Positions 5,360 to 60,091 of a stretch of DNA of 64,000 nt are shown here, piece by piece. Each line of letters begins with the position of its first letter. Position 1 is the first letter of the stretch. Position numbers and translations under genes: made by a program. This stretch comes from Somniosus microcephalus. Taxonomy: Eukaryota. Where the stretch lies: assembly GCA_052327205.1 (NCBI GenBank), contig CM126207.1:64728001-64792000 (forward strand), given 5' to 3'. The notes under the pieces were generated by a model. That model ran no database searches. It saw only the letters and a program-made list of their open reading frames with translations, and was not told where the DNA came from.

Positions 5360-7145
5360 ATGGATTCAGAATGGTCACGGGCTGCCCCAAGGTTTAATGA
5401 CGCATCCCTTGATGCACTGATGGGTGCAATGAGGAGCCAGAGGTACTCTTCCCCAGCAACGGGAGGAAGAAGCCTACTGTGGCAACAAAGAAGATGTGGC
5501 TGGAGGTGGCTGAAGTGGTCAGGAGCAGGAGCATAGTGGCATGCTCCTGGATTCAGTGCAGGAAGCGCTTTAATGACGTAACCAGGTCAGGAAAGGTGAG
5601 TACAGTTGCACATTCACCTACATCCTGCTGTGCACATCACCCCCATCCCCCTCACTCTGCCTTGTCAAGCCTAATCCATCATATAAATCCTCACACCCAC
5701 TTACCTTGCAAATGCACCCATCGTTCTCTTTCTATGCACTTCCTCACATCCCCATCAATCCACCCACCACTGCCACTCATCCTGATCCTTATGCAATTTG
5801 ATGCCTCTCCCTGATACTCGCCCTCACCAAATGCATTGGATCCATCGGGTGAACACATGCCATTACAGTCATTCATATGTCTGTTCTTTTCCCTGTTGCA
5901 GGAGAAGAGAGCACAGAATGCTAGGGAGAGGGAGAGGTCCTCCAAAAATTTCCCAGTTGACAGCTGCAGAGGAGGAAGCGATAGAGATCAGTGGCGTTTC
6001 AGCACCCTTGACCACCAGAGATTGAGATATTGGGACCTCGCAGCTACCTGGCGACAGAATTAAATATCAACGATCCATATATCATACAACACTCAGTCAT
6101 GTTGACTTGATTTCAGCAGCGAGTGAAATATGATCATCTTCATAATGCTAAGTTGCAACATTCTTAGCTTGCCAGTATTAATTCATATCTTTTCTCTCTG
6201 CCAGGGCCTTCATACATACAGCAGCAGTCGGTGGACCTCCCAGATGACGAATCCTCAGAGCAGCTGACTCCTTCTGAGGGTGCACTGTCACATGACTCGT
6301 GCTTACCATGCACCAGCACAGATGCTCACACTTTGGTGGGTCCAGTTAGGCAGTTAGTTGGGTTTTCACGCGGTGACTCATGGTTCACAAGTGAGCACGA
6401 ACAGACAGTGGTGGCAGGGTCAGCTGTGGATAGTCTGCGCTGGAGGGCGCAGCCCTCTCCAATCTCTGCTCAGCTGGACACAGATGAAAAGGATTATCAT
6501 TAAGGGGCAGCAGAAAATCTGCAATGTACTAGCAGGTCTTCCATGCACACTGACCACGATTGCAGAAAATGGAGGCGTCCTGCTCAAGCATGAGCAGGTT
6601 GATGTTGCAGGGCATTGCGAGGTTGTCTTCTTCCATTGATAGACTGGCCAACTCTGTGGAACATCAATCACGGTAATCAAATGAGTCCATGCAGGCCTTG
6701 ACCATGGCCATGCAAACTCTGGATACCAACATGTCTGGTGCCTTAAATGGGATGACAGACACCTTAGCCTTGGCTTTGGCATCACTGATCAACACCAAGC
6801 TGCTCTCCAGCAAAGTGGTATTGAAGTATGGCTGGCCCATGAGAGGGACGATGGCGAAAGGAGACATGGAAGTGGGGACTCCACTCAAAGCGCTCCCACT
6901 TCTCACCCATTGCCACCCGCTCAGCCAGCACCCGATATGTTACCGCCTTTCCCGATGGCTGAGTTTGCCCCTGCACAGGTACATGTGGAGCAGTCTTTGG
7001 CGGAGCCCTCACGGGCTCCAACACCTAGAGGTCATCAGCCAAGAGCATCTCAACAGTCAGAGCAGGGATCTGAGCAGCCTGCCTCTACCTCTGCTTAAGC
7101 CACAGGGGTTGCACCATGTAGGAGTGGTAGAAAAAGGAAAGCTTT
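5360..7145 (+). pseudogene. Three-exon Harbinger Myb/SANT-like (NAIF1/MYPOP-like) gene, disrupted
   Basis: Exon 1 5360-5595 (RAAPRFNDASLDAL...WLEVAEVV...WIQCRKRFND; donor AAG|gtgagt). Exon 2 5902-6050 (EKRAQNARERER). Exon 3 from 6205. Frameshifts are present. Confidence 0.8.
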
Positions 7146-7600
7146 GTTGTTCAACAAAAGGGTACACACATAGACCAAATGTTATGTTGTTAAGTTTCTG
7201 TTGTTTAGTAGAATCACATAAATGTTATTGTTTGTGTCACTTTTCAGTGTTGCCCATTCTTAGTTGCTGAGTAGCAAGTCGCCTTTTTAGTTGCTTGTTG
7301 ATAAATGGGAAGACATGAATTGACGGGGACCAATGAGGGGATGTGCAACGATGGATAGTTGGTTGCAGGACTGCTTTGTGTTAGTGGGATTGGATGTGAT
7401 TGTTACATCGGTCCAGTGGTAGTAACAAACTGAATCTTACAGCTATAAGGGAATCCCTGGCATCCTGGCAGCAATGTGAGCAGCTGGTGCTGCGTTGTGG
7501 GCACCATCTTCATCCTCTGCCTCATCCTCTTTCTCCTCTTCGTGGAATCGTCCACAAAGTACTCTGAGTGCCTTGTTCTTCTTGCTGCTCTACTCCTTTA

Positions 7601-15420: not shown

Positions 15421-15600
15421 ACTTTGTGTGTGTCTCAAGGCAGCAAAGGTAGCATATGGTTAGTTATGTAAAAAAAGACTGGGTTGATCAAATTTAGAAT
15501 GAAATTAAAGCCACTTTACTGGAATGTAATTTCTTCTACCCAATTTTGGTTTCATTGTTGATTGAATCACATTTAAAACATTTTGCTATTATTTTGTCCA

Positions 15601-15636
15601 TTGGCTACTGCATTGCTGGAATTATGCAGTAGCCAA
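15601..15636. repeat. 13-bp perfect inverted repeat (small foldback element?)
   Basis: ttggctactgcat ... atgcagtagccaa with a 10-nt spacer. Confidence 0.6.
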
Positions 15637-18664: not shown

Positions 18665-18781
18665 TTCAAACGGATCCTAATTTTTGGAAAGGTTTCAAAA
18701 TGCTAGCAAATCAATATAATCAGGAGACTCATCAAAATATGGTGTATTTTAAAATTGCTTGTTGAACTTTGAAATAACAAT

Positions 18782-32045: not shown

Positions 32046-32558
32046 AGAAGTCTGGGGGAGTGGGGGGAAACACAGGCAGGCCATCTATGGGAACTTATGT
32101 GCTGGTGCATCACCACTTGGGGCTGAATTAATTTGTTTCTGGTGTAAATGCGGTATTGAATTGTGAGAAAAGCAGGATGTGCCAGTTCTTCAGGAATCAA
32201 GTAATCTGATTCCTGTCAGAGCCTCCAAAAAATAAGCATTTAAATGCACTTTTTACACACAGGTGACGTTGACACAATGGGCTCAATTTTGCCATTGGGG
32301 GCGGGATGGGGCGTGTCAGGTGGTTTTCATGTCAGGACCCCGACTCCGATGTGAAGTTGGAAAAAAGTGCAATTTTGCCCTAATTGGGCACTTGGTTTCC
32401 AGTGTGTGGAAACCCCTGGCCCAATGAGTCTTTTCATACAGAAAGTCGCCTCCGATGATGTCATCAATGCTGCTGGATTTAAGGTCTGTAAGCAGCCTTG
32501 TTTCTTTTGGAGACTTTAAACTTTATGCCCATTGTTGAGATCGCTTCATTCAGCCACT

Positions 32559-34514
32559 ATATCCACCAGTAGGCCAAAGTGTGCTCCAAGGTTCGATGAG
32601 GCCTCCCTCCAAGCTCTGGTGGAGGGAGCAAGATCAAATAAGGAGGTGCTCTTCCCTTCCTCAGGGAGGAAAAAGCCTCCCCAGCAGACTAAAGCTGTGT
32701 GGCTGCAAGTGGCCCAGGAGGTCAACTCAATCTCTATGTGCCGCAGAACCTGGCTGCAGTGCAGGAAAAGGTTTCATGACCTTCTCCACACAGGAAAAGT
32801 GAGTATGACTTTCCCATCACCCTCAATCTGAACCCCATCGCCTCTCCTCACCAGCACTCTGCTTTGCCAACCTCTTTCTCCACATCCCACTTGACACTTA
32901 CATCCCTGCACTCTTACCCATTCCCTCTCTCTCTATGGTCACATTCACTTAAGTATTCGACAATGCAGCCCTCACACTCCCTATCTTGGTGATGCAATGA
33001 CAACAAATTACAACACACAGGGCGGGCTCTTTGTCTCCTCTAAGCATCTGTGCTATGGATTCTCTACATTCACTCCTTCATTCTCACTCAAACTCCACTT
33101 GTGTCCCTCATTGCAGGAAAAGAGAGCCCACAATAAGAGGGAAAGGGCAAGGACAGGAGGCGGGCCACCCTCAGTAGCCCAGCTCACCACCTCGGAGGAG
33201 GCGGCCCTGTAAATCGCCGGTGTCAAGGACGATTCACAAGTGGGGGTCGGACAGATCGCTGCATCACAGTAAGCTGGTGACCGAATAGTTTGGCATCTCT
33301 CTCATTGACATTGCATGAGTGACTGATAATGATTCTGATGCTCTAACAGATTGACTTATGATCATCAGCACAATTCAATGTGCATGCAACCTTTACCTCA
33401 CATCTCTAACTTTTTCCTTTACTCCCCCACAGGATCATCGACAGCCCCTGTCCCCAATGTCCAGGAGGAACAGCCTAAGCCTCAAGATTCCTCAGAGGAA
33501 GCTGCAACCTCTGAGGGCGCAGCGTCAGCAGAATTCAGCGCACCCAGCACCAGCGTGAGATAGAGTAGTGTTGTCACCTGGTGTATCACAGCTCACAAGT
33601 GAGCATCAGCAGATGGTGGAGACAGGGACAGCAGTGGAGAGTGCTAGTCGGAGGGCGCAGGACTCTGCCAGCTTGGCTCAGCTGCATGTCGACCCTGTCT
33701 CCAGGTCCATCCAGAAGGAGAGCGGTGCTGGAACTCCAGGAACAGGTGCAGGGGTCTCTGGCAGGTTTTGTCTCCAGGGTCGCTGCGAGTGTGGAGTGAA
33801 TGGAGGAGTCCATCACAAACATGAGCAGAGCCTTTGTGGAGGCATTGGCGCATGAACGCATCACCACGGAAAGGATGGCAACCTCCGTGGAAAGGATGGC
33901 TACCTCCATGGTACGGCTGGCTACTGTAGAGGAGAGGATGGCTACGGTAGAGGAGAGGATGGCAACGGTCATGGAGGAGCTTAGTCGCCAGGGTCATGAA
34001 AACATGGTCATTGTTCAAAATAGACTGACATCTCTTAAGGAGCGATGGTCAGCTACTGAGCATAGAAACCAGACCTTCATGGAAGTCCTCTGGAGTAGGA
34101 ATTCCAGTGCAGAAACAGGTCTTCATGGCCCCCCTGAAGTGCAGCAATGTGCTGTCAAGCCACTTGCTAGCTCTGAAGTGGGGCTGACCCATTAGAGGGA
34201 TATTGATGGCAGAGAACAAGGAAGTGGGGGCTCCTCTCCAAGCGCTCACACGACCATGCCACTGCAAAGCCCTCGGTCAGAGCCCCACCAGAGTCCTCAC
34301 CCAACTGAGATGGGCGTCTCAGCCCCTGCACAGCCGCAGGAGCAGCAGACTGTTGCCGAGCCCTCACAGGTTCACAACCCCAGAGGACAATTGTCAAAGG
34401 TGTCGAGACAGGAGCAGCAAGAAAGTGAGCAAGGGGCCTGCCTCCACGTCTGCTGAAGCCACAGGGGAAGCACCACGTAGGAACACACGTAAGAGGAAGA
34501 TAAAGCACAAGTAG
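32559..34514 (+). pseudogene. Three-exon Harbinger Myb/SANT-like gene, disabled
   Basis: Exon 1 to 32798 (APRFDEASLQAL...WLQVAQEVN...WLQCRKRFHDL), exon 2 33117-33276, exon 3 from 33433. Start codon lost; TAA at 33210 and further stops. Confidence 0.85.
33869..33973 (+). repeat. Five 21-bp tandem units encoding heptads (ERMATSV/ERMATSM/VRLATVE/ERMATVE/ERMATVM)
   Basis: Read directly; only one unit is present in the paralogue (44244-44264). Confidence 0.9.
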
Positions 34515-34538
34515 TCATAAGGGTAGTCACTTGGGTGT

Positions 34539-34991
34539 TCAGTTGTATTGATTTTTGACAAGCCATCCTTGAATTGTTATGATAAACAGATTTGATGGCA
34601 AACTGTTGAAGTTGTGGCCTGTGTCATTTCGCAAATGGGACTTCCACATTGAGGGCTTAGGGCAACTTGCAATTGTCAGTATGGTGGTCAAAGTGATAGG
34701 AATCCGCAGGTTCTTGTCCATTGTCGATGCTCTGGTAAGAAGGTGCGAGGCAAAAGTGTTTGATTCTGCAGGATAAGCAAATCTGGCCAACATGAGTGCG
34801 TCCCTTGCATTCCGGGCAGCAATGTGCTGGCGCCTTCTGGCCTGTGCAGCTTCAGGTGGGTGAGCAGTAGCTTGGCGCTCCTGTTGTTGCTCCTGCTGTT
34901 GGTGGTGCTGTTGTTCAGGGTTCTGCTGCTGCCGCGGCTGGTCTTCGTCCAAATCTGATGTCCAGGAGGAAAGGAAATAAATGGTTCCCAT
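34539..34991 (-). pseudogene. In-frame deletion remnant of Harbinger transposase (Gln-rich N-terminus fused to the C-terminal HIAARNARDALMLARF segment)
   Basis: N- and C-terminal parts match the ends of the element B transposase; all DDE motifs are absent. Confidence 0.75.
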
Positions 34992-36036
34992 GCTTCTGGT
35001 ATATACCTCAGTTGAGGAAGCGCTCAGTCAAGGTGGGGAGAGGGGTTTCCCAGGAGGTCACACTGGAAATGGGTGTCAGGCTCCAAACTTCCACAACAAT
35101 GAGTATGCCTGCTAAAAGTTCCCCCAGACCTGAGACAACAAAGTTCTGCCACCTGCAAATGATCATTGGTGAAAACTCCTTTTTAATGGTGGAGCTGCAG
35201 CTGTTAGTAAGCAATCCACTTGTGAGGCCGCCAGGATTAACTGGCGTGTTCCAGAGGAGACATGCAGGACAGGGGAAATGTTTTAAAATCAGAAAGGCCT
35301 CTCAAAATGGGATTATACAGGCAATTATCTTGTTAAGGGCCTATCATGCCTCTTGGAGGGATAGGCCCTTGGAGGCGGAATGGAAACGGGGTCTGAAACC
35401 ACGAATGTGGGAAAATTGCTCAGGTGCGGGATGGAGGTGGGATCGGACCCACCCGCCATTTTTTGCGATTTTGACAACTCACACGCCTCCATTCCTGCCT
35501 CCTCGGGCCTGGCAAAATCGAGCCCAATGTGATTAAGTCCAAGCAACCTTGTTACCAGCATGAAGCCTGCCTCCTCAGAACTGATGGGACTGATAATAAG
35601 GTTAATGTGCTTGTGAGGCTTTTAGAAGGCACAAAGGCATGGAGCACACACATTTCTTCTGAAACTCTGAGACCCACTGTGCATTTGCATGCGCAATGGT
35701 GCTTCCAGTTTCAAATGACATCTGGGATGTGCGTGAACTAGCACTATTTTAATGTTGCGACATTAACTTTTAAGTCTTCTTAAAATTGTAATTTTAATAC
35801 TATCATCTCCAAAAATGAATAGATAACACACGCACAAGTGGTTAAAATGTACCTGTTTTAGTGCTTGGACACTTTATAAAAAAAATTCCCACATAGACGT
35901 CAGCCTTGGGTCAGAGCTAGTACTCTCACCGCTGAGTTAAGAAGGCTGTACCCACTCCAGAGACTCAAGCATATAATCTAGGCTGATACTCCATTGCAGT
36001 ACTGAGGGAGCACTGCATTGTTAAAGGTGGTTTAAT

Positions 36037-36935: not shown

Positions 36936-37487
36936 ATTGAATGAGACATTAAACTGAGGCCCTGCCTGCACTTTCAAGTGGATGGAAAAGATCCCATGGC
37001 ATTTTTTGAAGAAGAGCAGGGGGGTATCAATGATTTGGATGAGGGGACCAAATGTAATATATCCAAGTTTGCTGATGATACAAAGCTGGGTGAGAATGCA
37101 AGTTGTGAGGAGGATGCAAAGAGGCTTCAAGGGGATATAGACAAGCTAAGTGAGTGGGCAAGAACATGGCAAATGGAATATAATGTGGAGAAATGTGAAG
37201 TTAGCCACTTTGGTAGGAAAAATAGAGAAACAGAGTATTTTTTAAATGGTGAGAGATTGGGAAATGTTGGTGTTCAGAGGGACCTGGGTGTCCTTGTACA
37301 CGAATCACTGAAAGTTAACATGCAGGTACAGCAAGAAATTAGGAAAGGAAATGGTATGATGGCCTTTATTACAAGAGGATTTGAGTATAAGGGTAAAGAC
37401 ATCTTCCTGCAATTATATAGGGTCCTGGTGAGACCAAACCTGGAGTATTGTGTACAGTTTTGGTCTGCTTACCTAAGGAAGGATATA

Positions 37488-39875
37488 CAGGAAACTCTTT
37501 TTTATCCGGCACCGACGGGACCGGCGTGTTGCCGGTTTATCAAAAATTCCAGATGACGGAGAGGGTTATCTACCGAGGCTATTTTTAACAAAGAAAAATT
37601 AAAAAATCAAGAAATGTGCAGTATACAGTAATTGGGTACTCACCTACAGAATGTTGTGTTAAATGGATGGTGGAAGATGCTTGATTAAGTACAGTACTGC
37701 CAGTTGAGGGTAATCCATAACGCTTTAATTACTTAACAGTAAAACAACTTATAAACGACTGTACAGTACAGTATAAAGTACTGTGGTTGACTACACTTAT
37801 TCCAAGTCAACTGGTTCATCGGGAATATCCATGTCAGCTGGGTCATCAGGATCATGCACTTCAACAGATTCTTCAGGTACTTCCACTGCTTCAACTCTTT
37901 TGGAAGCTTTCCTAAACATGTCCCAGATGTCTGCTTGCTTAGTGGACTCTTGCCTTTTTTGTAGAAAGGTGGAATGCAGAATATGGAGGTGCAAAACTTC
38001 TTGGGCAGAATAGCAAGGATGCCTTTCAGCAAATTTGAGGAATGAAGCAAAATCTTCTGCAGCTTTAGCCCAAGAAATCTTCTTCTCTTCAGAAATCTCA
38101 TCCTCTTCACTTTCCATCACACTTTCCTTTTCTTTCTTTGGATTCAAAACATTCTCCATTATTTCATCATCACTTAGCATATGCACAACAGCAACTTCTC
38201 TATCTGCATCAACCCACTGCTCAATATCACTTTCACTGAGGTGACGTAGAGGGTTTGCTGGGCCTACATTTTTCCCCATGCCAGCCATTTCCATTACTGT
38301 ACTCCTCTTGAGACGAATATTGAACCCATGAAATTCCTCCTCTGAAGAAGAACCTTCAGCAAACATTACAGAAGGCCACAATTTGCGCCAGGCTTGTCTC
38401 AAAGTGTGACCTTTCACCAAGTTCCAGGAACATGCAGCATTAAAGATGGCATCTTTAAGATTGTATTCCTTCTGAAATGCGTGAATATTGTCATCTTGGC
38501 TTATCAGTTTACGTAGGAAGTCTTTCTTGTAATGACACTTGAGATTTTGGATAATGCCCTGGTCCATGGGTTGTATGAGAGAAGTTACATTTGGTGGCAA
38601 ATAAATGGTGAAAATATTTCCAGAAACCAACTCGGATTCATGCGGATGGGCTCTACAATTATCAAGCAATAAAATGCATTTGCTATCTTCAGGTTTTCCT
38701 ATTCTATGGAAATGTTCCCTCACAGATGGAACAAAAATATGATGGAACCAATTCGAAAGATTTCTTTATCCATCCAAGCATTTCTTTGAGCTTTGTACTC
38801 AACAGGTAAGTGCCTCACATTTTTAAATGCACAGGGATTTTTATACTTCCCAATGACGAGAAGTTTAACCCGGTGTGATCCAGCAGCGTTCACACATGTT
38901 AGCACGGTTACACGATCTTGATTTTTCTTGTAACCTGAAGCATTAGCCTCACTAACCTCAGCAAGCGTTGATTCTGGCAAAAACCTCCAAAATAAGCCAG
39001 TTTCATCGGCATTGCATAGCTGTGCTGGCGACAAGTCATGTTGCTGCACAATCCGATTGAAATAATCGCAGTATTCTTCTGCGGCGTCGTGATCAGCTGA
39101 TTTCTTCTCCCCGGAAATATCGAGTCGTCGTATCCCGTGCCGTACCGTGAAGCACGTTAGCCATCCCTCGGAGAAAGCACACTTGTCAGTGAGCTCCATC
39201 TTTGCGTAGAAATTCTTCGCTTTTTCGATTAGCATGGGTCCGGAAATCGGAACACCCTCTGAACGCTTAAGAGAAAACCACTCATAAAGCACGGTATCCA
39301 GCTCTTTAAGCTTAGGCTTACGAAGCATACGCCGTTTCTTTACACCCTTAGATGTCTCCGAGCTTGAATAAAACTTGAGCAGCTTATCCTTCTGCGATTT
39401 GATGTCGTAGATTGTTGACGAACCGATTTTGAATTCTTTCATAATGTTGATACGCTTCTCTCCCCTGTCTAGTCATTGGCATATGTCGATTTTCTGTTTT
39501 AAAGTTAACACCACTCTCTTCCTTTTGCTTGGACCAACTTTTAGGATTTCCATAATGCAATGCAATGACTACCAGCAGCATAGGAGACACACAGTACCCC
39601 TATAAAATGGTGGATCAGAAGAGACTACCGGCAGCGTGGGAGAGTCAGACTCCTGTTACAGGGGTTTTGAGGTGTTCCGACTCCCGACAGCACCAAGAAG
39701 CCGAAGAGTGGCAGTTTGGAGAACTACCCCCACTGACTAACTCGGCCACCGCAGGAGACTCGAACTTGGACTCGGCAACATTGCTGGTTATTGAGGTGTT
39801 GTTTTCGGAGCGAGAATTTTGCCGGTTAATAGAGAATTCTGGATATTTAGGCGCCGTTTAAACGAGAGTTTCCTG
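37488..39875 (-). mobile_element. Full-length pogo/Tigger DNA transposon (2388 bp)
   Basis: TA TSD (37486-37487, 39876-39877); ~25-bp TIRs caggaaactc...ccggcacc / ggcgccg...gagagtttcctg. Confidence 0.95.
37797..39553 (-). pseudogene. Tigger/Jerky-like transposase (CENP-B-type HTH domains plus DD32D) with one nonsense codon and one frameshift
   Basis: MEILKVGPSKRKRVVLTLKQKIDICQ*LDRG (TGA at 39475-39473); GPMLIEKA; NADETGLFW; LLLDNCRAH; QPMDQG; frameshift near 38755. Confidence 0.92.
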
Positions 39876-40897
39876 TACTTGCCATAGAGGGAGTGCAACA
39901 AAGGTTCACTGGACTGACTTCTGGGATGGGGGACTGTCCTATGAGGAGAGATTGAGTAGACTAGGCCTATATTCGCTAGAGTTTAGAAGAATGAGAGGTG
40001 ATCTCATTGAAACATACAAAATTCTTACAGGGCTTGACAGGGTAGATGCAGGGAGAATGTTTCCCCTGGCTGGTAAGTCTAGAACCAGGGGTCACAGTCT
40101 CAGAATAAGGGGTCGGCCATTTAGGACTGAGGTGAGGAGAAATTTCTTCACTCAGAGAGTGGTGAATCTTTGGAATTCTCTACCCCAGAGGGCTGTGGAG
40201 GCTCAATCGTTGAGTATATTCAAGACAGAGATTAGATTTTTGGATATTAAGGGAATCAAGGGATATGGGGATAGTGCAGGAAAGTGGAGATGAGGTAGAA
40301 GATCAGCCATGATCTTATTGAATGGTGGAGAAGGCTCGATGGGCCAAATGGCCTACTCCTGCTCCTTTTTCTTTTGTTCTTATGTTCACCTAGTGTTCTG
40401 GACAACATTTATTACTCAACTGCTAAAACAGATTATTTAGTCATTTATCTCATTTATATTTGTGGGACCATGCTGTGCACAAATTGGCTGCCACTTGTTT
40501 CTATATTACAACAGTAACTACAGTTCAAAAGTACTTTATTCGCTGTGAAGCTCTTTGGTGTGTCCTGAGATCGTGAAAGCCGCTATATAAATGCGAGTTC
40601 TTTCTTTCTTCTTTCACATTGATAACCAATTTAGTTATGAAGCTTATCTACCTAAGGTGAGACGCTTTCAGCAAGACTACAAAAAGGAATAAAAGGCACG
40701 TCTAAAATAAAAAATGCAAAACCATAAAAAAGTTTTTCAAATGAAAATATTATAAACCTGTAATTGCATATTGCTGTAAAAAAACATTAATTTTTTTTAT
40801 AAACATTTTCAAATCTGGAAATGATTTACATGGTTGAATTTAAGTTCCCATGATTAAATAGCACCAATAAGTTAAAAAAAACACTTGCTGAAATGAT

Positions 40898-42346: not shown

Positions 42347-42774
42347 GATGTTTCAATAGGAATTAGAAGTAATTCTGTGGTTTGAAAAATGCATAACATG
42401 ACAGTAAAGATAACCTTGTAATTAAACACGGTGATGGCAGCTGGGAATTTTGTATACATTTTGCTTCACATCAGTTGCTGTACTACTGCACTTCGTGTGA
42501 AGCTGATGTGGCGTGAGATTATCTCCTACAGGTGGTCTCATACTAAGACCCTAAATTCAACGAGGACAATTTAGCACCCAAATTACACTGCACGTCTTGG
42601 GCTCGCTTTTAACTCAGGTGCGGGGAATTGTCGGGTTCCCTGAATTTGGTGTTTCCCACACGAATCTAAATGGGTGTGTGAGATTGATGCAATTTTAACT
42701 CAATTGGCCAATTGATTTCCAATGTGTGGGAACCCTTGGCAAATGAGTATTTCCAGTCAGAAAGTCGCATAATA

Positions 42775-42782
42775 TGACGTCA
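42775..42782. promoter_or_regulatory. CRE/ATF site TGACGTCA about 100 bp upstream of the Myb ATG
   Basis: Perfect palindrome; the CpG-decayed version TGATGTCA is at the equivalent place in element C (~32455). Confidence 0.4.
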
Positions 42783-42877
42783 TTATTGCTGCTGCATTTA
42801 GGGTCTGCAACAAGCCTTGCTTCTTCTGCAGGTTGCCAACCTTTTGGCATTTGCTGATACACTGAGCTAGAAGCAGA

Positions 42878-44579
42878 ATGGCAAGAGAAAGACCGAGGTC
42901 TGCATCCCGTTTTGATGACGTTGCCCTGCAGGCTTTAGTGGAGGGAGCAAGAGCTCACAAGGAGGTGCTCTTCCCTTCATCAGCGAGGAAGATGCCTCCC
43001 CAGCAGACAAAGGCTGCATGGCTGCAAGTGGCAGAGGAGGTCAACTCCTTATCGGCTACCCGCAGAACCTGGATACAGTGCACGAAGAGATTTCATGACC
43101 TTCAGCACACTGGAAAAGTGAGTATGAGGTTCCCATCACTCTCAATCTGATCTGCATTGCCTCTCCTCACCAGCACTCAGCTTTAGCGATCTCTTCCTCC
43201 ACATCCCACTTGACACTGACGTCCATGCACCCTTACCCATTCCCTCTCTCTCTATGCTCACATTCACCTAATTATTCGACTATGCAGCCCTCACACTCCC
43301 TATCACTGTGATGCTATGAAAACAACTGACAACACACAGGGAGGGCCCTTGGTTTTGCCACCTCACTCCATCTTTGTCTCCTTCTAAGCATCTATGCTAT
43401 GGATTCTCTACACTCCCTCCTTCATTCTCACTCAAACTCCACTTGTCTCCCTCATTGCAGGAAAGGAGAGCTCACAATAAAAAAGAACGAGCGAGGACAG
43501 GAGGAGGGCCACCATCAGTAGCCCACCTCACCCCCTGGGAGGAGGCGGTCCCGGAGATCGTAAGACTGGAGGATGAGGCGCAAGTGGGGGACGGACAGAC
43601 AGGTGCATCGCAGCAAGCTGGTGACAGAATAGTTTTCCATCTCTCTCATTGACATTGCATGTGTCGCTGATAATGATTCTGAAGCTATAACAGATGGACC
43701 TATGATCATCTGCAATATGCAATGTGCATGTAACCTTGACCTCACATCTCTAACTCTTTCCGTTACTCCCCCACAGGACCATCGAGAGCCCCCGTCCCCA
43801 CTGTCCAGGAGGAAGAGCCTGAGCTTCCAGACTCCTCAGAGGAATCTGCAACCTCTGAGGGCGCAGCATCAGCAGAATTCAGCACACCCAGCACCAGCGC
43901 ACACACTCACACCTCGGTGGGACCTTCGAAACATAGAGTAGTATTGTCACCTAGTGTATCACAGCTCACAAGTGAGCATCAGCAGATTGTGGAGACAGGG
44001 ACAGCAGTGGAGAGTGCTAGTCGGAGGGCGCAGGACTCTGCCAGCTCGACTCAGCTGCATGTCGACCCTCTGCCTCTAGGTCCATCCATAAGATCAGCGG
44101 TGCTGGAACTCCAGGAACAGATGCAGGAGTCTCTGGCAGGTTTTGTCTCCAGGGTCGATGTGAGTGTGGAGCGAATGGAGGAGTCCATAGCGAACATGAG
44201 CAGAGCCTTTGTGGAGTCATTGGCGCATGAACGCATCACCATGGAAAGGATGGCAACCTCCATGGAGGAGATAAGTCGCCAGGGTATGGAAAACATGGTG
44301 AGTGTTCATAATAGAATGACATCTCTTGAGGAGCGATGGGCATCTATTGAACAGAGAAACCAGACCTTCATAGAAGTCCTTCTGAGTAGGACTGCCAGTG
44401 CAGATACGGGTCCCCATGGCCCCCTGATGTGCAGCAAGGTGCTCTCAAGCCACTTCCAAGCGCTGGCCCCTTCTGGCCTGTGCAGCTTCAGGTGGGTGAG
44501 CAGCAGCCTGGCGCTCCTGTTGCTGCTGCTGTTGTTCCTGGTTCTGCTGGTGCCGCGGCTGGTGTTCGAGCGCATCTAA
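42878..44579 (+). CDS. Predicted intact spliced Harbinger Myb/SANT-like protein, 400 aa (exons 42878-43117, 43461-43620, 43777-44579) with a hydrophobic C-terminus
   Basis: 240+160+803=1203 nt; intron phases 0 and 1 are compatible; no stop when translated by hand; GT-AG introns conserved with elements B and C. No expression evidence. Confidence 0.65.
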
Positions 44580-46014
44580 TGCCCAGAAGGGAAGGAAGTA
44601 AATGGCTCCCATGCTTCTGGTATATGCCTCCGTTGAGGAAGCGCTGAGTGAAGGTGGCGAGCAGGGTTTCCCAGGAGGTCACACTGGAGATGTGTGTGAG
44701 GCTCCAACCTTCCACAGGTGTGGTTAAGCCTGGTAAAAGTTGCCCCTGGCCTGAAACAACAAAGTCCTGCCACCTGCAAATGATGACTGATCAAATCTCC
44801 TCTTTAGTGGTTGACCTGCAAGCCAATAGTGCTCATGCCAGGTTTCACAGGCGTGATCCCCACCAGGCGTGTTTTACGTGGGAAAAGGGTTAAAAATGCA
44901 AGGGCCTGTTAAAATGGGATTATAAAGGCCAATTATTGCTGATTAAGGTCCTTAAAGACCAGTCCCGCCTGTTGGAGGCGGGACTGATTGAGGACCATCA
45001 GACACGCCTGGGTTAAAATGGCTTGGGGTCGGGAACCAGGCGGGGGCCCGACCCCCAGTTTTCGCGATTTTAACCCCCCATACGCCTCAAAGCCCGCCTC
45101 ATGGCTGAGTTAAAATCGACCCCACTGTGTCAATGCAAAATCAGAACTGTGTGCAGTAGCATATCTCACATTTACTTACAATGGGTTTTGAAGTAGCTTT
45201 GCTGTAAACACTAAAACTGTTGATACTACAATTGTCCCTTGTTGTTCATTTTGAAAAACTTTTATGCAAAGAGCAAAGATAATAAATAGATTATTCACAG
45301 AAAATAGAGTTCATTGGCAAACAACTAAGATGTTGATGGACAGTGAAGAAAAGTGGGGTTGGAAATATTGTCTACGTTCGACTGAACAAAATGCTGTAAG
45401 GCCTGCTTAACTGTCATCAGAAAAAAGGATAAACAGAAATAACAACTCTCAATTTGGGTGCACATATCCATAATTCTATCCTTGATTTATTAGATACACA
45501 CAAACACAATCCATCTTCAATACTTAGATTCATGGCTGCCCATAAAAATAGGCTAAGATATTGCAATAGTAGGCACCTAAAGCATGGATGCACAACAAGT
45601 AGTGGCCACCCATATTATTGGACGTGGAGTCTGAGGTCTACGAGACACCCAATGAACATAATGTGCCAAAATACATTATGAATACTTGGTGCTCACGGCT
45701 CATTTTCCGGAATCAAGTTTCAGGAAAACGGGGGCAGAAACCTGTTACGTCAGGTCTCCACCCCATTTATGTTTCTCTGGAATTCCTGAGGCTTCCCTAG
45801 GGTGGAGAAGCTGGGCCTGTGTTTGCAATAGGCACAAACTCATTGCTCACATGTAAATGAGGCAGAAGTGGGCGTTCCCGCCTTACACCTCTATTTCCTA
45901 TAGTAACCGCCTTGGGGTGCCCAATGGTAGAACGCCCAAGAAGCTGGCGCTGAGCTTGTCCCCAGATTGCTCTCAGACTGAAGGGTTCAATAGCAGGCCA
46001 AAGAGGACTCTCAA

Positions 46015-47199: not shown

Positions 47200-48800
47200 C
47201 ACCATACATAAATGGAAATTCATCAATGCAGAGGTGGTCAGTAATCACAATAGAATTGTGTACATGAATGTACATTTCCCTGGCAGCTCTCACCATTCGT
47301 TAATCATGCAGCAGTCAATGAAGCCAACCTTATTTGAAGAGCCAAGAAAATTCCAGGGATGGCTTTCAGGAAAACGAAGCATTTGCCCTGCAGCCATGGT
47401 TCATGACATCAGTGCAGTTGCCGAGACCAGAGCTCAGGGAGATACAATGTGGCTCATGAATCCATAGTGGGATACACCTTTAGGATCTTCAAACTGTGAT
47501 TCTATTGCTCTGACCATTTTCAGTGAGCTCTACAGTATAGCCCAATCATAGTCTGTAAGATTATTGTTGTCTGTTGTGTTCTTCACAACTTTGCCTGCAA
47601 AGAGAACTAATAAAGGAGCTGCTAAGAGAAGAAAGGCAGCATGAAACTGAAGAAGACAAGGCTGCTCACGAGAGAATTGTCTTTTGAAAGAACTGCTCAG
47701 ATTGCAGTCATCAAACAGGATCTGAGAATGCAACCTTAGTTCTCCCGACGACTTGAATCAAGCTCATACGAAATGAACTAACAGCACACACTCTAGTTTC
47801 AGTCAGTGCAATTTTTAATTACCCAGACATTATATGGTGCTGCTGTGTTCAGTTGGTTCTCCCCATGGCTTTCACTTTCTACTTCCTAATCATGTGCCCC
47901 TTCTAAGAATTAGTATGGTGGAAAAACAAAGTGAGGTGGATGACTGCTGGGTGTCATAGCTTGCCTCTCAGGATGGAGGAGGCTTAGTGCTTTTATCTGT
48001 TGGGTCAATAGATGGCCTTGTACCTGTAGGTATCACAGTGAGTGATGAAGTGGCCTTGTATGTTCGGGAGCATACCAACAATCATTTCAGTGGATTAGCA
48101 GGGTGGTTGGAAGTGGCAATGCCTTGCGAAACAGCTCCATCATCCTTTCCAACTCCTGCCAGTTCCCTACAACTAGGCACTTCCTCAGCATGACCAGAGA
48201 TCTGAGTGGGAGCAGACCTCTGGCAGGGATGAGGTAGTTGAAGTCATGTGTTATGGCTTTTTCAATGTGATTCCCCAATATAATGAATCCAGAAAAGACA
48301 AAATGCTGTAGATTGAAGATAAAGGTCTCCATAGCTCCAATCAAAACACTGGTGAGAGATGTTCAACCTGAGCTTAAAACCTCAGCCAAGGTGTTCTGGT
48401 GCAGAGGACCATGGAATGGCCACATTCCCATAGTGCTCTGCAGCTTGGTCAGGTGGATATGTAGCACTGTGCAGATGCAGGTTGTGCACTTCTCTGTGGA
48501 TGCTCTCAAAGTGTACAGGCTGTGTTGCACAATTTCAAATGGCTCCTTGAAGTGCTGTTGTTGAGCTACCAAAGAATGTTTGTAGATTGGGTTTGTGAGG
48601 TCTGAATCATTGGATACAGCAGCTGAAAGACACCTTGAGCTGACTCCATTTTGTAACCAGCAGCTCCCCTTAAAGATGTACAATATTTTAGGGTGCTGGC
48701 ACAGGAAATCCCACACCTGAACTTGGCACATAATACACTATACATTGGGACTGCTGAGCAAGTATAATAATGAGCTCATCTTACATTATTGGGTGAGGTA
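47200..48800. mobile_element. Ancient Harbinger remnant (transposase + at ~47200-47740; probable partner gene - beyond it)
   Basis: NVHFPGSSHHSLIMQQS...LFEEP...GWLSGK resembles RYPGSSHDAFILRQS...GWLLGNK; the remainder is very degraded. Confidence 0.55.
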
Positions 48801-49210: not shown

Positions 49211-50391
49211 GGGATAGATTTTAGCTCGGAGTGTGGTTCTGGTGGGAAACCAATCCAACAGATGAGTAGGAGGCCACAGCGATTTTTCCATTTAAATACC
49301 ATCAGTTCACTTTCCATCTAGAACGGGCATGAAGAAAGCACAGAATGGATGCCGGCAGGTGAAAATCGAGTAGCCCTTGGCCGCCTGCTGGCTTCTAGTT
49401 AAGTGGTGGGAAGGGGGTTTCTGGAGACTCTCGCAGGATGGAAAGGGAGAGAGTCCAGAGCCAGCAGAGGCCACATCTTTCATTGTGGAGCTCCAAGGAG
49501 CACTCCTGCTCTTCCTGGCCCCAAAAAGGAAAGATTTAGATTTACAAAAGGGCTTCACTGTCTTCAGACCAGATGCAGACCTGCTTCTGCTGAACAGAAA
49601 AACTGCGATGTCTTGCTACAATTGTACACGGCCTTGGTGAGACCACATTGTGCACAGTTTTGGTCTCCTTATCTAAGGAAATATATACTTTCCTTGGAGG
49701 CGGTGCAACAAAGGTTCACTAGATTGATTCCTGGGATAAGAGGGCTGTCCTATGATGAGAAATTGTGTAGAATGGGCCTTTACTGTCTGGCGTTTAGAAG
49801 AATGAGAGGTGATCTCATTGAAACATACAAGATTCTGAAGAGGATTGACAGGGTAGATGCTAAGAGGTTGTTTCCCCTGTCTGGAGTGTCTCGAACTAGG
49901 GGGCATAGTCTCAGGGTAAGGGGTAAGCCATTTAAGGCCGAGATGAGGAGGAATTTCTTTACTCAGAGGGTTGTGAATCTTTGGAATTCTCTGCCCAGAG
50001 GGCTGTGAATGCTGAGTTTTTGAGTATATTCAAGGCTGAGATAGATAGATTTTTGGACTGTAGGGGAATCAAGGGATATGGAGATCAGGCGGGAAAGTGG
50101 AGTTGAGGTCGATGATCAGCCATGATCTTATTGAATGGCGGAGCAGGCTCGAGGGGCCGTATAGCCTACTCCTGCTCTTATTTCTTATGTTCCCTGTAAA
50201 GGTCCCGGTTAAAAATTGCATCGGGTCCCACTGACACATTAGAATCCCAATTTGCATAAATTTAGGAGGCTCCCATCTGCTTTAGGTGAATGCCTCATCC
50301 ACCTGAAAAATCTTGCAGACAAGTAATCTGCTTCTTTTTAACTGCCCACCTGCTCGGTTTCTGACAGGTGTTCAGGGTTATAATTGACCCC
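49211..50391. mobile_element. Degraded Harbinger-type MITE interrupted by a CR1
   Basis: gggatagatttt ... taattgacccc ends around the CR1 piece. Confidence 0.4.
49607..50192 (+). mobile_element. CR1 3' fragment
   Basis: LLQLYTALVRPH...RRNFFTQRVVNLWNSLP plus CR1 tail. Confidence 0.9.
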
Positions 50392-50444
50392 ACTGAAAAT
50401 TGTGCAAGGTTTGGTGAAAGGGGTGGATTCAAGAGGCCAATTGT

Positions 50445-51550
50445 AAACATAGAAACATAGAAGATATGAGCAGGAGTAGGCCATTCGGCCCCTCAAGCCT
50501 GCTCCGCCATTTAATGAGATCATGGCTGATCATCCAAATTCAGTACCCGGTCCCTGCTTTCTCCCCATATCCATTGATCCCTTTAGCCTTAAGAAATATA
50601 TCTAACACCTTCTTGAATATATTTAATGAATTGGCCTCAACTGCCTTCTGTGGTAGAGAATTCCACAGGTTCACCACTCTCTGGGTGAAGAAATTCCTCC
50701 TCATCTCTGTCCTAAATGGCTTACCTCTTATCTTTAGACTGTGACCCCTGGTTCTAGACTCCCCCGCCATCGGGAACATCCTTCCTGCATCTAGTCTGTC
50801 TAGTCCTGTTAGAATTTTATAAGTTTCAATGAGATCCCCTCTCATTCTTCTAAACTCCAGCGAATATAAGCCCAATCGACCCAATCTCTCCTCATACGTC
50901 ATTCCTGCCTTCCCAGGTATCAGTCTGGTGAATCTTCGCTGCACTCCCTCCATGGCAAGAACATCCTTCCTCAGATAAGGCGACCAAAACTGCACACAAT
51001 ACTCAAGGTGTGGTCTCACCAAGGCCCTGTACAACTGCAGCAAGACATCCTTGCTCCTGTACTCAAATCCTCTTGCTATGAAGGCCAACATACCATTTGC
51101 CTTTTTAACCGCCTGCTGCACCTGCATGCTTACCTTCAGCGACTGGTGCACAAGGACACCCAGGTCTCGTTGCACTTCCCCTTCTCCCAATCTATTGCCG
51201 TTCAGATAATAATCTGCCTTCCTGTTTTTGCCACCAAAGTGGATAACCTTGCATTTATCCACATTATACTGCATCTGCCATGCATCTGCCCAATCACCCA
51301 ACCTGTCCAAATCATGCTGGAGTTTCTCAGCATCCTCCTCACAGCACAGATGCCCACCCAGCTTTGTGTCATCTGCAAACTTGGAGATATTACATCTAGT
51401 TCCCTCGTCTAGATTAATATATATTGTGAATAGCTGGGGTCCTAGCACCGATCCCTGCGATACCCCACTAGTCACTGCCTGCCACTCGGAGATAGACCCA
51501 TTTATTCCAATTCTTTGCTTCCTGTCTGCCAACCAATTCTCCATCCAAAC
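50445..51550 (-). mobile_element. Young CR1 3' fragment, close relative of 10034-12460, open ORF 50540-51544
   Basis: Protein is nearly identical to the C-terminal part of ORF 10689-12362; aaacat occurs at both boundaries. Confidence 0.93.
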
Positions 51551-53201
51551 ATTTTAATATTTCTCAAGGGTGAAGTTGGATTTTCTGGTAGACGGAGCAG
51601 AGACTTATACACATGTTTAATCCCCAAAAAGTGTGCCTGTGGTCATAGAGAAGGAAAAAACTAACGCTTGAAATATTTTGAAGCACTTTAACAATGCAAT
51701 ACTAAGATAAGTGCAAATGCAGAAATGTGGTCTGGAGAACACAGAATTTCAGACAAACAGAAGTCAAATTGTCTGTTTTTTTGTGCCTTGTTACTATGGT
51801 AACCAAAGCACTAAAATAATCACCAAATGGTTGCTTGAATGATGGATAGTGTAATAAATTCAAAAGACAAAGGCTAAGGATATTCGTGCATTGTCAAGAT
51901 CATTTCTTAATTCTGATGAAAACATTGGCACAATTTACAGAAAACTACAACAAAGCAAAACAGATTGTGACATGAATCAACTGAGCGGCCTGCGGGTGGC
52001 GCTGTCCAAGGGGAGTATAAATACTCGGGCACGGTCCCAGCTTGTGCAGGACATTCTTAACAGGAACTAGTGAAGGACACAACTAGACCTCCATTGTTGT
52101 AAAACAGTTGATTAAAGCTTTGTTTAACGCTTAGACCAAGTGCCTAGTAGTTTTCTTACGTCAGATTGTGTTAAAAACAATTTAACAAAACAATATTTGG
52201 GTTTTACATTAGGTATTCCCTCAACTTTGGTATCACCAGTCACTTCTGTAAGATAACTTGTGTTCCCTACGACCCAGAGTACATGTTTTACTGCCCAATA
52301 TCTAGATAAATAATAGCATGATCCAGAAACCATAACACAGAACCCTTGTTGCAGATACAGACTATTGTAATATCATATGTATCATCAGATGTATTGTATC
52401 TTTATGGAAGGCGGGCTGAAAATTAATCTATCAAGACAGGGTACAATTGCAAACCAACAAACTTGTATGGCTGGAATTATGCCGGCGCTCAGAGTGTGGG
52501 TTTGGAGGCGGGTCCGCTGTCAAAATAACAAAGATTGACAGCGGGTAGGAAACCCGCTGTCAACCCGCCTCCTCGCAAGTCTTCCAGGTGTCGGGTCGGT
52601 CAGCAGAGAATTGACCCGACACCAAGCAGTGGGGGAGACAATTGAGCACATTAACTGGTATTTTGATGCTTCCTTCCAATTTTACATCCTCCTCCATGGG
52701 TTACCCACTGCTCGGGGAACATGCCAGCTCACCCTGGTGTGAGTTGAGTCTGCTCTGATGTACCTGATAAGCTGACAGCTGCAGAAGTGGTGTAAGGATA
52801 CCATGTTGCAGATAGTCAGTTTCTGAGTGCAGAAACTGGAGCAGCGGCAGCAGTGGACCTGCGAGGGAGCAGCGGCTGTGGGAGAAAATAAAGCTCGGTG
52901 ATTTTCAGGCCCAGTCGAGCAGCGGCAGCAGTGGGAGTGGCGGACCTGCGAGGGAGCAGTGGCTGTGGGAGAAAATAAAGGTTGGTGGTTTTCAGGCTCA
53001 GTCGAGCAGCGGCAGCAGAATTTGAGAGTGACATCACAGTACAGAAAGTGACGCCGGCGTAGGGGAAGAAGCTGATTGGTGAGTAGTGGGTGAGTGCTTT
53101 TTTTTCCTTCAAATTTAAGTTTATTTCTTTTAGTTAAGGTAGTTCGGGAGAGCGAGAATCCGAGTGTTTAAATTTGAGGTAAGAGTTTTTAAATTAAACA
53201 T

Positions 53202-55132: not shown

Positions 55133-55323
55133 TGTAATGTATATACCTTTAAGGGGGGAACTATGTTTTACAGCTCATGTATACTGCAGTACCGGCAGTG
55201 ACCACACCTGTATATAGCACTGAGTAGTAATCTGTACAGATCAGTTGCAGTGTGAGCCACGTTGAGTAAACACCTGTTGTGCCGTTCTCCGCAGTCTGTG
55301 TCTTATTATACACGGACGCAACA
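55133..55323 (+). repeat. 5' LTR (191 bp)
   Basis: Differs from the 3' LTR by 6 substitutions and 2 indels (1 bp and 4 bp), counted by eye. Confidence 0.95.
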
Positions 55324-55335: not shown

Positions 55336-55841
55336 CAGGTTCGAACCTACCTGCAACTCTGCATCACCTCCCGGGGATTCGTTCCTGGAGATCAGTGGAT
55401 TGGAGGTCAAGGCCAGAGACTCGGGCGCGACCACGGGCAACTGCCCAGTCATCCAGCAGAGACTCAAGAATTGCGGGGGAGGCTGTCGAGAGCCAGGCTT
55501 GGCTTTCCAGTCGAGGTGGTCCAGCGAAACAGGCTGGCAACAGGTAGTGCGCAGACCCTTCCCGGACAGCGGCGGGCTAGAGCCCGACCGAGCGGCACAG
55601 CAAAGGGCCGAGCAGCGTCGACGGGGGAGAGAGAGAGAGGGCAGAGCGCACAAGGCGCAGCCGGTGTGCAGGGGCCGAGCAGCGTCAGAGAGAGGGAGAG
55701 AGAGACGCGCAGAAACCCGCGAGGCGCCGCCATTGCCACGAGGACCGCCGAGAGCGGCGTTGGCAGCAGCGGGGGAGGGGGGAAAGCGCGGGAGACGCCA
55801 TTTTAAGCCATTGGGAGATGCCATTTTAAACCACACCCAAA

Positions 55842-58800
55842 ATGCCGACGAGTGGCAGTATCACCGCATTTGACAATGAAGTCGAAGATTGGACTACATG
55901 TGTCGAACGAATAGAGGTGTACTGCAAGGCAAATGAGGTGTCAGATGACAAGAAAGCGTCGGTATTGTTAAATTTAATGGGTGCAAAGACGTATGGTTTA
56001 TTACGAAATCTAGTAACCCCAACGAAGCCAATGGAAAAGAGTTTTGAAGACATAGTAACGATACTAAAGGAACATTTAAACCCCACACCGCTGCTGATAG
56101 CAGAAAGATTCAAGTTTCACAAACGGAACCAGCATAAGGATGAAAGCAATGCTGATTATATAACAGAACTGCGCAAACTATCGAAACACTGCCAGTTTGG
56201 AGCGGGACTGGCAGATACCTTAAGGGACAAGTTTGTGTGTGGGCTTCAAAGTGAAGGAACCCAGAAACGGCTTTTATCTGAAAAGGACCTTACGCTGGAA
56301 AAGCCTTTCAGCATTGCGGTATCATATGAAGCAGCAGCACAGGGCGCTGCAGAGATACAACAGAGATCGAAAGAATATGGCACAAACAAAATGTCATATG
56401 CAACAGAGAAGTGCTATCGCTGTGGCAGAACAACACACGACCAGAATGATTGCTGGTTCAAAGACAAAGTGTGCAAACAGTGTGGAAAAGTAGGACACAT
56501 AGCACGAGTCTGCAGGTCGGGAAAGAAAACCAGCAATAAGAAACCTACCAAAGGAAAGTACAAGAAGGTACATAAGATGACGGAGAATAGTTCAGACGAA
56601 CAAAAGAGTGATAACGACTCCGAAAGCAGGGAACTGAGTTGTCTGAAACTACATAATGTGATTACAACGGAGGATCACCAAACCATTTGGGTCACTCTCA
56701 AGATAGCAGGAGTCCAGGTAAAGATGGAATTGGACACAGGATCAGCCCTAACAGTCATAAACCGACGGGACTACGAGCGGCTATTCTCACACATACCCTT
56801 GAGAGGCACAAAAATTATTTTGAAGATGTACACGCGGCAAAAAGTCTACCCCAAAGGAAAAATAAGGGTGACCGTTATATATAACGGTAAGGAAACACCG
56901 AAACTAGACCTGTATGTATTGCAAGATGGAGGACCACCATTACTGGGACGAGAATGGATCCGGAAAATACAACTGGATTGGCATTCCATACAGGCACTGA
57001 CTGTGGCTGACAAAAAGGATGACGACGTCACACCTGGGCGACTGTCAAAGATCCTAACTGACGCGAAAGAAGTGTTCCAGCAAGGACTCGGAACACTAAA
57101 AGGCATGACAGCGACGATTAAAATTGAAGAAAACGCAAGCCCAAAATTTTTTAAGGCCAGACCGGTACCTTATGCAATCCGCCCAGCCGTCGAAGCAGAG
57201 CTGGAGAGTCTGGAACGTTCAGGTGTACTGTCCAAGGCAGACTGGAGCGAGTGGGCTACACCCATCGTCCCTGTGATGAAAAAGTCGTTGAGCAGCACGC
57301 CTGGGGAACCAAGGAAGGTTCGCATCTGTGGGGGCTTTAAGGTAACAGTGAACCCGGTCCTTCACACCGTACAATATCCACTTCCGCGTATTGAAGATAT
57401 TTTCGCCTTGCTATCTGGAGGGAAATGCTTCACTAAGATTGATCTGGCCCAGGCGTATCTGCAAATGGAGGTAGAAGAAGCATCAAAAAAATACCTCACA
57501 ATCAACACCCATAAAGGTCTCTACCAATACAACCGGCTGGTATTCGGGGTAGCATCACCTCCGGCTATTTGGCAGAGGGCAATGGAACAAGTCCTGCAAG
57601 GGATCCCAGGGACCCAGTGTTATTTGGACGACATCCTGGTCACGGGCGAAAATGACAGTGATCACCTTGCCAACCTGGAGCAGGTGCTCACTAGATTGCA
57701 GGAATATGGGCTCCGAGCTAACCGCCCCAAATGCGAGTTTTTTTAGAAAACAGATCTCGTATTGTGGCCACGTTATCGATAAAGAGGGGTTACATAAGTC
57801 CCCAGAGAAGATTGAGGCAGTAGTCAAGGTTCCAGCACCGGAAAATGTGTCACAACTGAGGTCATTCCTTGGGCTGGTAAACTACTACCATAAGTTCTTG
57901 CCAAATTTGTCTACAATACTACACCCACTGATCACCCTACTGCAAACTGGGGTGCCATGGAAGTGGAGTGACGAATGTAGACGAGCTTTCCAGAAGAGCA
58001 AAACACTAATCACATCGAAAGAGGTATTGGCCCATTACAACCCGGCATTACCAATTCGGTTGGCATGTGATGCGTCACCCTACGGCATTGGAGCGGTGCT
58101 GTCGCACAAATTCTCGGACGGCTCAGAGAGGCCAATAGCCTTTGCGTCACGATCACTAACCTCAGCCGAGCGTAACTATGCCCAGATTGACAGGGAGGCC
58201 CTCAGCCTAGTGTGGGGAGTGAAAAAGTTCAATCACTATCTGCACGGGCAGAAATTCGCCTTGCTGACTGATCACCAGCCTCTTGTCTCCATTTTTAATC
58301 CAAAGAAGGGCGTTCCGGTGATGACTGCGCAACGACTACAAAGATGGTCACTTTTTCTAGGGGCGCACCACTATGAGATTGAATATAAGGGCACGAAACA
58401 GCATGGAAATGCTGATGGGCTATCACGCCTGCCACTGCCTACTGCGGAGGAAGCACCAGCAGTGGATCCTGTCGAAATATTCCATTCGACTATAGTTGAA
58501 TACCTACCGGTAACTAACGCTTGTATCGAAAAGGAAACCCGAAATGACCCGACACTGTCTCGGGTATATGATTTGACGGTGAAGGGATGGCCAGCACATG
58601 GCGACTCACTGTTGCCAGCATTCTCGACAAGGAGAGAACAGCTGTCAGTGTGCCGGGGGACCTTGATGTGTGGATCCCGAGTGGTAATTCCACCCAAGTT
58701 AAGGGATAGAGTGCTCAATGAGCTTCATGAGGGTCATCTTGGAGGGGTAAAAATGAAAAGCCTAGCCAGGGCTTATGTGTGGTGGCCAGGAATCGATAAA

Positions 58801-59905: not shown

Positions 59906-60091
59906 TGTAATGTATATACCTTTAAGGGGGAACTATCTTTTACAGCTCATGTATACTGCACGGCAGTGACCACACCTGTATATAGTACTGAGTAGTAATC
60001 TGTACAGATCAGTGGCTGTGTGAGCCACGTTGAGTAAACACCTGTTGTACCGTTCTCCGCAGTCTGTGTCTTATTATACATGGACGCAACA
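59906..60091 (+). repeat. 3' LTR (186 bp)
   Basis: Direct repeat of 55133-55323. Confidence 0.95.

Follow-up and report, generated by a model that had tools for sequence, protein, structure and literature searches.

Copy D, a three-exon Myb/SANT-like gene lying within the 64,000-nucleotide stretch of DNA analysed here (the window), belongs to a highly repeated family of Myb-only Harbinger elements, its membrane-like tail being likely a neutral by-product of a deletion and a frameshift. It is likely a decaying element copy and not a new gene. The sequence-only reading had taken the locus for a nascent gene; the anatomy behind that view, namely a Harbinger Myb gene, a deletion, read-through into antisense CAG/CAA codons and a transmembrane-like tail, stands, whereas function and domestication are unsupported. 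Copy D illustrates how a membrane anchor could arise in one step from an antisense glutamine run and, in this capacity only, may provide raw material for a new gene. The features of this copy and of its two sister copies in the window are as follows (strand in parentheses).

42599..42617 (+): left terminal inverted repeat (TIR) of copy D, 17 of 19 letters matching the right end
42878..43117 (+): first exon of the Myb gene, 80 codons that encode the Myb/SANT-like domain, PF13873 match
43461..43620 (+): second exon of the Myb gene, adding the basic extension RARTGGG, splice sites in common with copy C
43777..44579 (+): exon 3 with acidic/Ser-Thr linker, helical region, frameshift, antisense-derived tail and stop
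44079..44378 (+): likely coiled-coil region, 52% large hydrophobic residues at a/d positions in one heptad register
44420..44424 (+): C5 run in codons 348-350, a -1 frameshift compared with copy C and, likely, with the family
44462..44465 (no strand): deletion junction, 4-nt microhomology GCTG, ~650 nt absent compared with copy C
44462..44612 (-): presumed 5' remnant of the transposase gene, 50 codons starting with ATG, open and collinear with copy C
44508..44552 (+): predicted transmembrane helix, made up of the hydrophobic core LALLLLLLLFLVLLV in codons 378-392, 15-residue Kyte-Doolittle mean (KD15) 3.65
45105..45123 (-): right TIR of copy D, where depth in sequencing run X1 falls from ~1.8e5 inside to 15 beyond
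45281..45286 (+): candidate poly(A) signal in the host flank, the sole AATAAA/ATTAAA in a 2.1-kb scan that began at 44401
32279..35525 (+): sister copy C, disabled and Myb-only, lacking a DDE core but retaining the Myb C-terminus, which ends RRNTRKRKIKHK
5360..7146 (+): copy A, a more distant, disabled Myb gene

Structure of the Myb gene

The three exons join, as originally proposed, into 1203 nucleotides (400 codons and a stop) with GT-AG at both introns; the gene has a start codon in good context, its splice sites and, further downstream, an AATAAA. The Myb/SANT-like domain first recognised from the sequence alone corresponds to Myb_DNA-bind_5 of Pfam, which exon 1 matches above the cut-off (E = 8.5e-10). 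A full-length relative is found in Heptranchias perlo (XP_067827223.1, 465 aa): exon 1 is 47.5% identical to residues 1-80 of this protein, with the same start and end, and exon 2 aligns to residues 75-134. Because the relative has the same start and joins at the same residues, the gene model appears sound. The weak intron 2 donor, initially considered a caveat on copy D, is CTG/GTGAC in copy C as well and, given the identical joins in the Heptranchias protein, is a trait of the family. Among the protein matches, 10 of 11 are named as proteins of three sharks, from which the element is likely to be of shark origin. Exon 3 resembles the predicted shark proteins over its first ~190 residues at most. 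Comparison of exon 1 with longer proteins yielded 0 of 203 candidates, and a metagenome scan for relatives gave 168 pattern matches, none of them confirmed.

The description of the gene as intact needs to be amended. The native frame stops at about codon 348, and the last 53 codons lie beyond the frameshift, such that 347 codons of the frame are native, the next 14 are frameshifted and the final 39 derive from antisense transposase sequence. Copies A and C are, as claimed, disabled, with stops and frameshifts in both. The heptad pattern within exon 3 is likely to reflect a coiled coil. Relative to position 44260 of copy D, the helical region of copy C contains an 84-nt (4 x 21 nt) in-frame expansion at 33887-33970; in-frame expansions of ~21-nt units in this region are also present in runs X1, X4 and X14, which suggests a coiled coil of variable length. 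Pfam matches of exon 3 to ATG17-like, heme lyase, Baculo_F and DUF6507 families are under the cut-offs (E 0.03-0.08) and were dismissed as noise.

Part of the stretch is contained in 20 of the 24 listed sequencing runs, none of which is recorded as RNA. In run X16, for which RNA was only a guess, no splice joint appears among the 15 joints listed out of 89, and the introns are covered at least as deeply as the exons. Run X14 shows adapter-like loose ends at the CCTGCAGG site (window 42925-42932), with depth piled alongside, and probably represents DNA sequenced from restriction sites and not RNA.

Element anatomy and sister copies

The element that carries copy D spans 42599 to 45123. The paired short TIRs at its ends, between which the repeat depth is confined, are of the type found in PIF/Harbinger elements, and so is its Myb/SANT-like DNA-binding gene. 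The flanks of copy D read CTT and ACT, i.e., there is no clean 3-nt target duplication; clean duplications are found in copy C (AAT/AAT) and in a small element at window 49211-50391 (ACT/ACT) that has Harbinger-like ends and CR1-like sequence inside.

The open reverse-strand stub at 44462..44612 is presumably the transposase N-terminus, an assignment that we base on its position and on the usual Harbinger architecture. The corresponding transposase-start remnant of copy C has no Pfam match, and the DDE queries from the window match the DDE_Tnp_4 core in neither copy C nor copy D, the latter retaining the 50-codon stub only. With no DDE core in either, both copies are Myb-only; TIRs together with a Myb gene, a lost DDE domain and many copies, all of which are seen here, characterise non-autonomous Harbinger elements of this type. 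The transposase start of copy C continues in frame into an apparent last helix (34542-34991, minus strand), with no DDE core between them; we take this short helix to be the usual end of Harbinger transposases. Decayed Harbinger pieces are also present at window 1082-2600, 8911-9519 and 47222-47377, with DDE_Tnp_4 fragments among them (E = 1.1e-13 for the one at 1677-2201), and the transposase of copy A is split by insertions.

Deletion junction and reading frame

Copies C and D are 88-90% identical on either side of the deletion junction; the copy C segment 34176-34825 (~650 nt) is absent from copy D, at 44461-44465. The deletion had been said to remove the normal Myb C-terminus and almost all of the transposase. 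The former is indeed lost, whereas most of the latter may not have been there to be removed, copy C being already without the DDE core. The lost Myb terminus is basic, ending RRNTRKRKIKHK in copy C and RRGSRKRNPKAL in XP_067827223.1, and is likely a nuclear signal. Undeleted continuation past 44465 is found in 21 contigs of X1 and 41 of X4, from two organisms, which points to a single deletion at the GCTG microhomology. The copy D breakpoint is within a few bases of the older junction of copy C, so that the parent of copy D may have been either C-like or full length. One 143-nt contig of X4 (organism C) bridges the same junction with 11 differing letters and one gap: the junction is real and common to a paralogue or orthologue whose frame differs by one base. 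Bin depth across the junction is no measure of junction frequency. Another deletion into the same stretch, from 44130 to 44491, is found in 16 X4 contigs and also in X16, and leads into a frame that is not transmembrane-like. Internal deletions 44130-44491 and 43392-43993 are seen repeatedly in organisms C and F (in X4, 16 and 4 contigs, respectively), showing that several deletion subfamilies exist.

The frame that follows depends on the run at 44420-44424, which, as noticed from the outset, is C5 in copy D and C6 in copy C. With C6, copy D would be read, as first claimed, to a stop at 44645-44647, giving a non-hydrophobic end (...WYMPPLRKR). An extra C accounts for 25, 23, 52 and 33% of the depth in four runs, and short C6 contigs are clipped at 44424. 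Simulation of an all-C6 family on random sequence gave a visible insertion of 0-40%, varying with the gap cost. A mostly C6 family fits, since this range covers the 23-33% seen in three of the four runs. C6 therefore looks like the family norm, and C5 in copy D is likely a private change or an assembly slip. The opposite interpretation of the 23-52% extra C, that C5 is common in the family, was rejected in view of the clipped C6 contigs and the simulation.

The leucine-rich tail

The tail corresponds, as proposed, to the transposase N-terminus RHQQNQEQQQQQQERQ read in register from the antisense strand. Its hydrophobic core is antisense to Q/E/H codons; Leu, Val and Phe appear because the antisense of Gln/Glu/His codons turns the middle A into T. 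The tail can hardly be called new, as it was initially, given that copy C has this Leu frame in latent form, ending in a stop at the equivalent position. The transmembrane-like character holds as far as hydropathy goes, with a 15-residue Leu/Val core and a best 19-residue Kyte-Doolittle mean (KD19) of 2.98; 8 residues follow the core, and elsewhere in exon 3 KD19 is at most 0.64 over the first 200 windows. The hydropathy profile is that of a tail-anchored protein: one C-terminal helix, a short tail and no other transmembrane segment in exon 3. Such an outcome is readily reached, with 20 of 60 landing sites, i.e., one frame in three, giving a transmembrane-like stretch. No hydrophobic C-terminus is present among 13 retrieved proteins (KD19 maximum 1.52), and a search of proteins with tail region 205-266 gave 0 of 303 candidates, no predicted protein having the tail.

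In human cells, according to the cited part of bioRxiv 10.1101/2022.07.20.500724, hydrophobic tails translated out of frame are captured by BAG6 and either degraded or targeted to membranes. The copy D tail resembles those described there in its middle-U-rich codons produced by out-of-frame reading; it differs in that the BAG6 system is one of human cells and in that the poly-Leu core of copy D is hydrophobic enough to make insertion plausible. By analogy, the copy D protein, if expressed, would likely be degraded or ER-anchored, and would lack the basic tail; that it could bind a transposase is conceivable.

Copy number, drift and selection

Four runs were aligned to the stretch at 90% likeness. 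In X1, the summed depth is 0.18-2.5 million between the TIRs compared with 12-15 in the flanks; summed depth does not equal copy number, although division by 31 overlapping words should still leave thousands. Contigs at a likeness of at least 90% number 51,036 in X1 and 74,221 in X4. The family thus likely consists of thousands of copies, at odds with the single or low copy number of the domesticated NAIF1/MSANTD genes. Organism A carries the copy D insertion in two samples: at the left end, contigs of X1 and X14 extend 34 and 38 letters into the element, and at the right end one X1 contig extends 25 letters into it, fewer than the 31 that the rule applied requires. The X1 flank contigs differ from the window at 1 of about 585 letters. 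The flanks were matched in organism A only, and the flank gap in X4 (organism C) is no proof of absence.

Changes private to copy D were taken from a variant table of which 40 of 253 rows were shown, keeping coding rows where nearly all of the family depth differs from copy D. There are 16 such coding sites among the rows shown, 14 non-synonymous and 2 synonymous; four further coding rows, one non-synonymous and three synonymous, fell under the threshold and were dropped; this threshold may lose polymorphic synonymous sites, and the display may under-show synonymous sites. The 14:2 count has P of about 0.001 or less under omega 0.3 and P of 0.10-0.20 under omega 1, and is indicative of neutral change on copy D. 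Omega estimates above 2 were not taken as positive selection. Of 25 sites at which nearly all of the family depth departs from copy D, 20 have the family letter in copy C. One of the changes, at 43083, turns the family R into T in the QCRKRF helix (recognition-helix region); XP_067827223.1 has H at this position, so that the change need not be fatal.

Exon 3 of copies C and D gives dN 0.102 and dS 0.105, equal to the intron distance of 10-12%; its omega is 0.95-0.98 (interval 0.51-1.88), and constraint on the short D branch still fits (P 0.08-0.35). Purifying selection, as expected of a domesticated Myb gene, was, with limited power, not detected on copy D. An exon 3 ratio of about 1, with no orthologue shown, is largely what the sequence-only reading had named as the mark of a young neutral copy. 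Copy D differs from the family by between 1.2% and 7%. At 2-5% drift, an open 346-codon frame would survive with P 0.42-0.13 without indels and P 0.20-0.02 with them; given such odds, many open copies are expected in so large a family.

A separate pattern concerns the other two exons. Between copies C and D (window 42878-43776 and 32559-33432), exons 1 and 2 have dS of 0.5-0.8 and omega of 0.2-0.3; synonymous sites differ at 22 of 48 positions in exon 1 and 14 of 39 in exon 2, compared with 51 of 474 positions in the introns (Fisher P 1e-8 and 9e-5), and exon 3 is in line with the introns. The depth of the family at 90% likeness is also lower over exons 1 and 2, and a difference of 25-31% separates the ends of the two elements. 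As guesses, either mosaic subfamilies or cDNA conversion could be behind this exon-precise divergence, which may merit more work than the Leu tail.

The sequence of events that we propose concerns an element with paired TIRs and a three-exon Myb gene, in which no more than a stub of the convergent transposase remains. The loss of ~650 nt at GCTG, perhaps through microhomology-guided gap repair, removed the basic Myb C-terminus, both 3' ends and the remaining transposase end as it is in copy C. C5, a probable private slip if not an assembly error, brings the read-through into register with the antisense Gln/Glu/His codons and gives Leu/Val/Phe, where C6 gives a non-hydrophobic PPLRKR end. Copy D would have drifted neutrally by a few per cent, staying open by chance, and its protein, if made, would pass to BAG6/TRC triage, to be mostly degraded or tail-anchored in the ER, with no action at the TIRs.

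Alternative explanations

Homopolymer length is the commonest error of long reads, and the tail hinges on a single base of such a run. In a sub-case of the neutral copy, C5 would be an assembly error and the true C6 frame would end non-hydrophobic at 44647, with no transmembrane tail. This fits the C6 of copy C and, likely, of most of the family, and long reads err most in exactly such places; one-base homopolymer losses are, however, also the commonest natural indel, and the X1 flank contigs agree with the window at all but the one letter noted above, which suggests an accurate assembly nearby. We regard an assembly error as unlikely. A different view of the same locus holds copy D to be a young domesticated gene or proto-gene, i.e., a Myb protein that is expressed, tethered to a membrane and recently selected in a single lineage of sharks. 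The frame open over 400 codons, the canonical splice sites, the good start context, the presence of the insertion in two samples of organism A, and the TIR mismatches and lost target duplication, which suggest a copy that is immobile and not brand new, are compatible with it, as is the repeated domestication of Harbinger Myb genes (cited part of PMC9392472). Against this view, the private changes are mostly non-synonymous and include one in the recognition-helix region, omega of exon 3 is about 1, and an open copy is to be expected among thousands of paralogues. Taken together, these data make a proto-gene extremely improbable.

The Leu frame could also matter across the whole family if, reached by deletion or by splicing, it produced a tail-anchored Myb protein that keeps the transposase cytoplasmic and damps transposition. 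Between copies C and D, this frame has 4 amino-acid differences where random placement predicts 8.0 (P = 0.009; dN/dS 0.26), i.e., it is conserved above chance, with the stop at the same codon. In copy C it occupies 34764-34958 (plus strand), where 64 codons free of stops follow an acceptor-like AG at 34770-34771; in undeleted copies, splicing to this AG would give a conjectural alternative last exon. The junction is found in another organism too, and Myb proteins bind and import the transposase (PMC9179366 and PMC9392472, in passages citing Sinzelle 2008). The conservation, however, runs past the stop (6 differences against 11.4 expected over 50 codons, P = 0.004) and, as the middle codon positions are shared with the transposase frame, it is likely a shadow of old transposase constraint. 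Furthermore, the acceptor AG has a poor pyrimidine tract, the commonest other deletion shown uses a different frame, the X4 contig across the junction shows a gap of one base, net, within the stretch, and the tail is absent from predicted proteins. A family-wide role of the Leu frame is thus highly improbable. The bolder version, in which the conserved poly-Leu frame has been tapped to hold the transposase at the ER through a tail-anchored Myb protein, a dominant-negative brake on a very large transposon family, whether intrinsic to it or captured by the host, and a TSNARE1-like gene at its birth, appears very unlikely; if true, it would present a transposon protein turned into a membrane-tethered inhibitor, at a testable early stage of domestication.

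Comparison with known systems

For the neutral, Myb-only copy that we favour, the closest described system is Harbinger-1M_cIno of Caenorhabditis inopinata, a group of MADF-only PIF/Harbinger derivatives (258 copies, 19 of them MADF-only) that have kept the TIRs and the DNA-binding gene and lost the DDE domain by internal deletion; the branch of the DNA-binding gene is expanded, and mobilisation in trans has been inferred (cited part of PMC13668399). The present family differs in being a vertebrate one with, likely, thousands of copies, and copy D in having lost the Myb C-terminus and gained an antisense tail. It is a very large Harbinger family in what is likely a shark genome, and the two close copies seen here are both Myb-only, an arrangement emphasised until now in a nematode. 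Autonomous vertebrate Harbingers, as described in the cited parts of PMC9179366 and PMC5741667, have similar TIRs, a 3-nt duplication as in the sister copies and Myb/SANT plus transposase genes; unlike copies C and D, they possess the DDE core, and their target is TWA compared with A(A/C)T-like here. PMC9179366, in the passage cited, reports that Harbinger was not found in the elephant shark and proposes that other cartilaginous fish be checked; large expansions of Myb-bearing Harbingers are known from a newt (PMC5741667, in part). Searches of the published literature, mostly at the level of titles, yielded neither a shark Myb-only Harbinger nor an antisense-derived anchor on one.

Harbinger Myb proteins, which bind and import the transposase, have been domesticated several times, as NAIF1 and MSANTD1-4, which are syntenic across vertebrates with dN/dS < 1 (cited part of PMC9392472). 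These genes share with copy D a Myb/SANT-like domain from the second Harbinger gene; copy D differs by its retained TIRs, its masses of close paralogues and its neutral-looking change. The analogy drawn earlier with TSNARE1 is a loose one. TSNARE1 also combines a Harbinger-type Myb domain, a helical region and a C-terminal transmembrane segment, which is optional; its anchor belongs to a syntaxin-like Qa-SNARE and is missing from most transcripts (bioRxiv 10.1101/2021.02.09.430442, in part), whereas exon 3 of copy D has no Qa-SNARE, with no Pfam match to a SNARE or syntaxin domain up to E 0.1.

Other mobile elements in the window

No host gene was found in the window, where 125 non-repeat ORFs of at least 62 aa, a length at which shorter exons are missed, have 0 Pfam matches; the window consists almost wholly of mobile elements. 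A Tigger/pogo-like transposase with CENP-B_N, HTH_Tnp_Tc5 and DDE_1 domains is encoded in two overlapping frames at 37797-39472 (minus strand). An LTR retroelement, which we take to be Gypsy-like from its motifs, encodes gag-pol in two long overlapping frames of 638 and 764 aa at 55830-59847 (plus strand), flanked by ~190-nt matching repeats at 55133-55323 and 59906-60091. Many LINE reverse-transcriptase fragments, presumably CR1-like, are scattered over 10328-22710, 37025-40389, 49607-51553 and 60245-62118.
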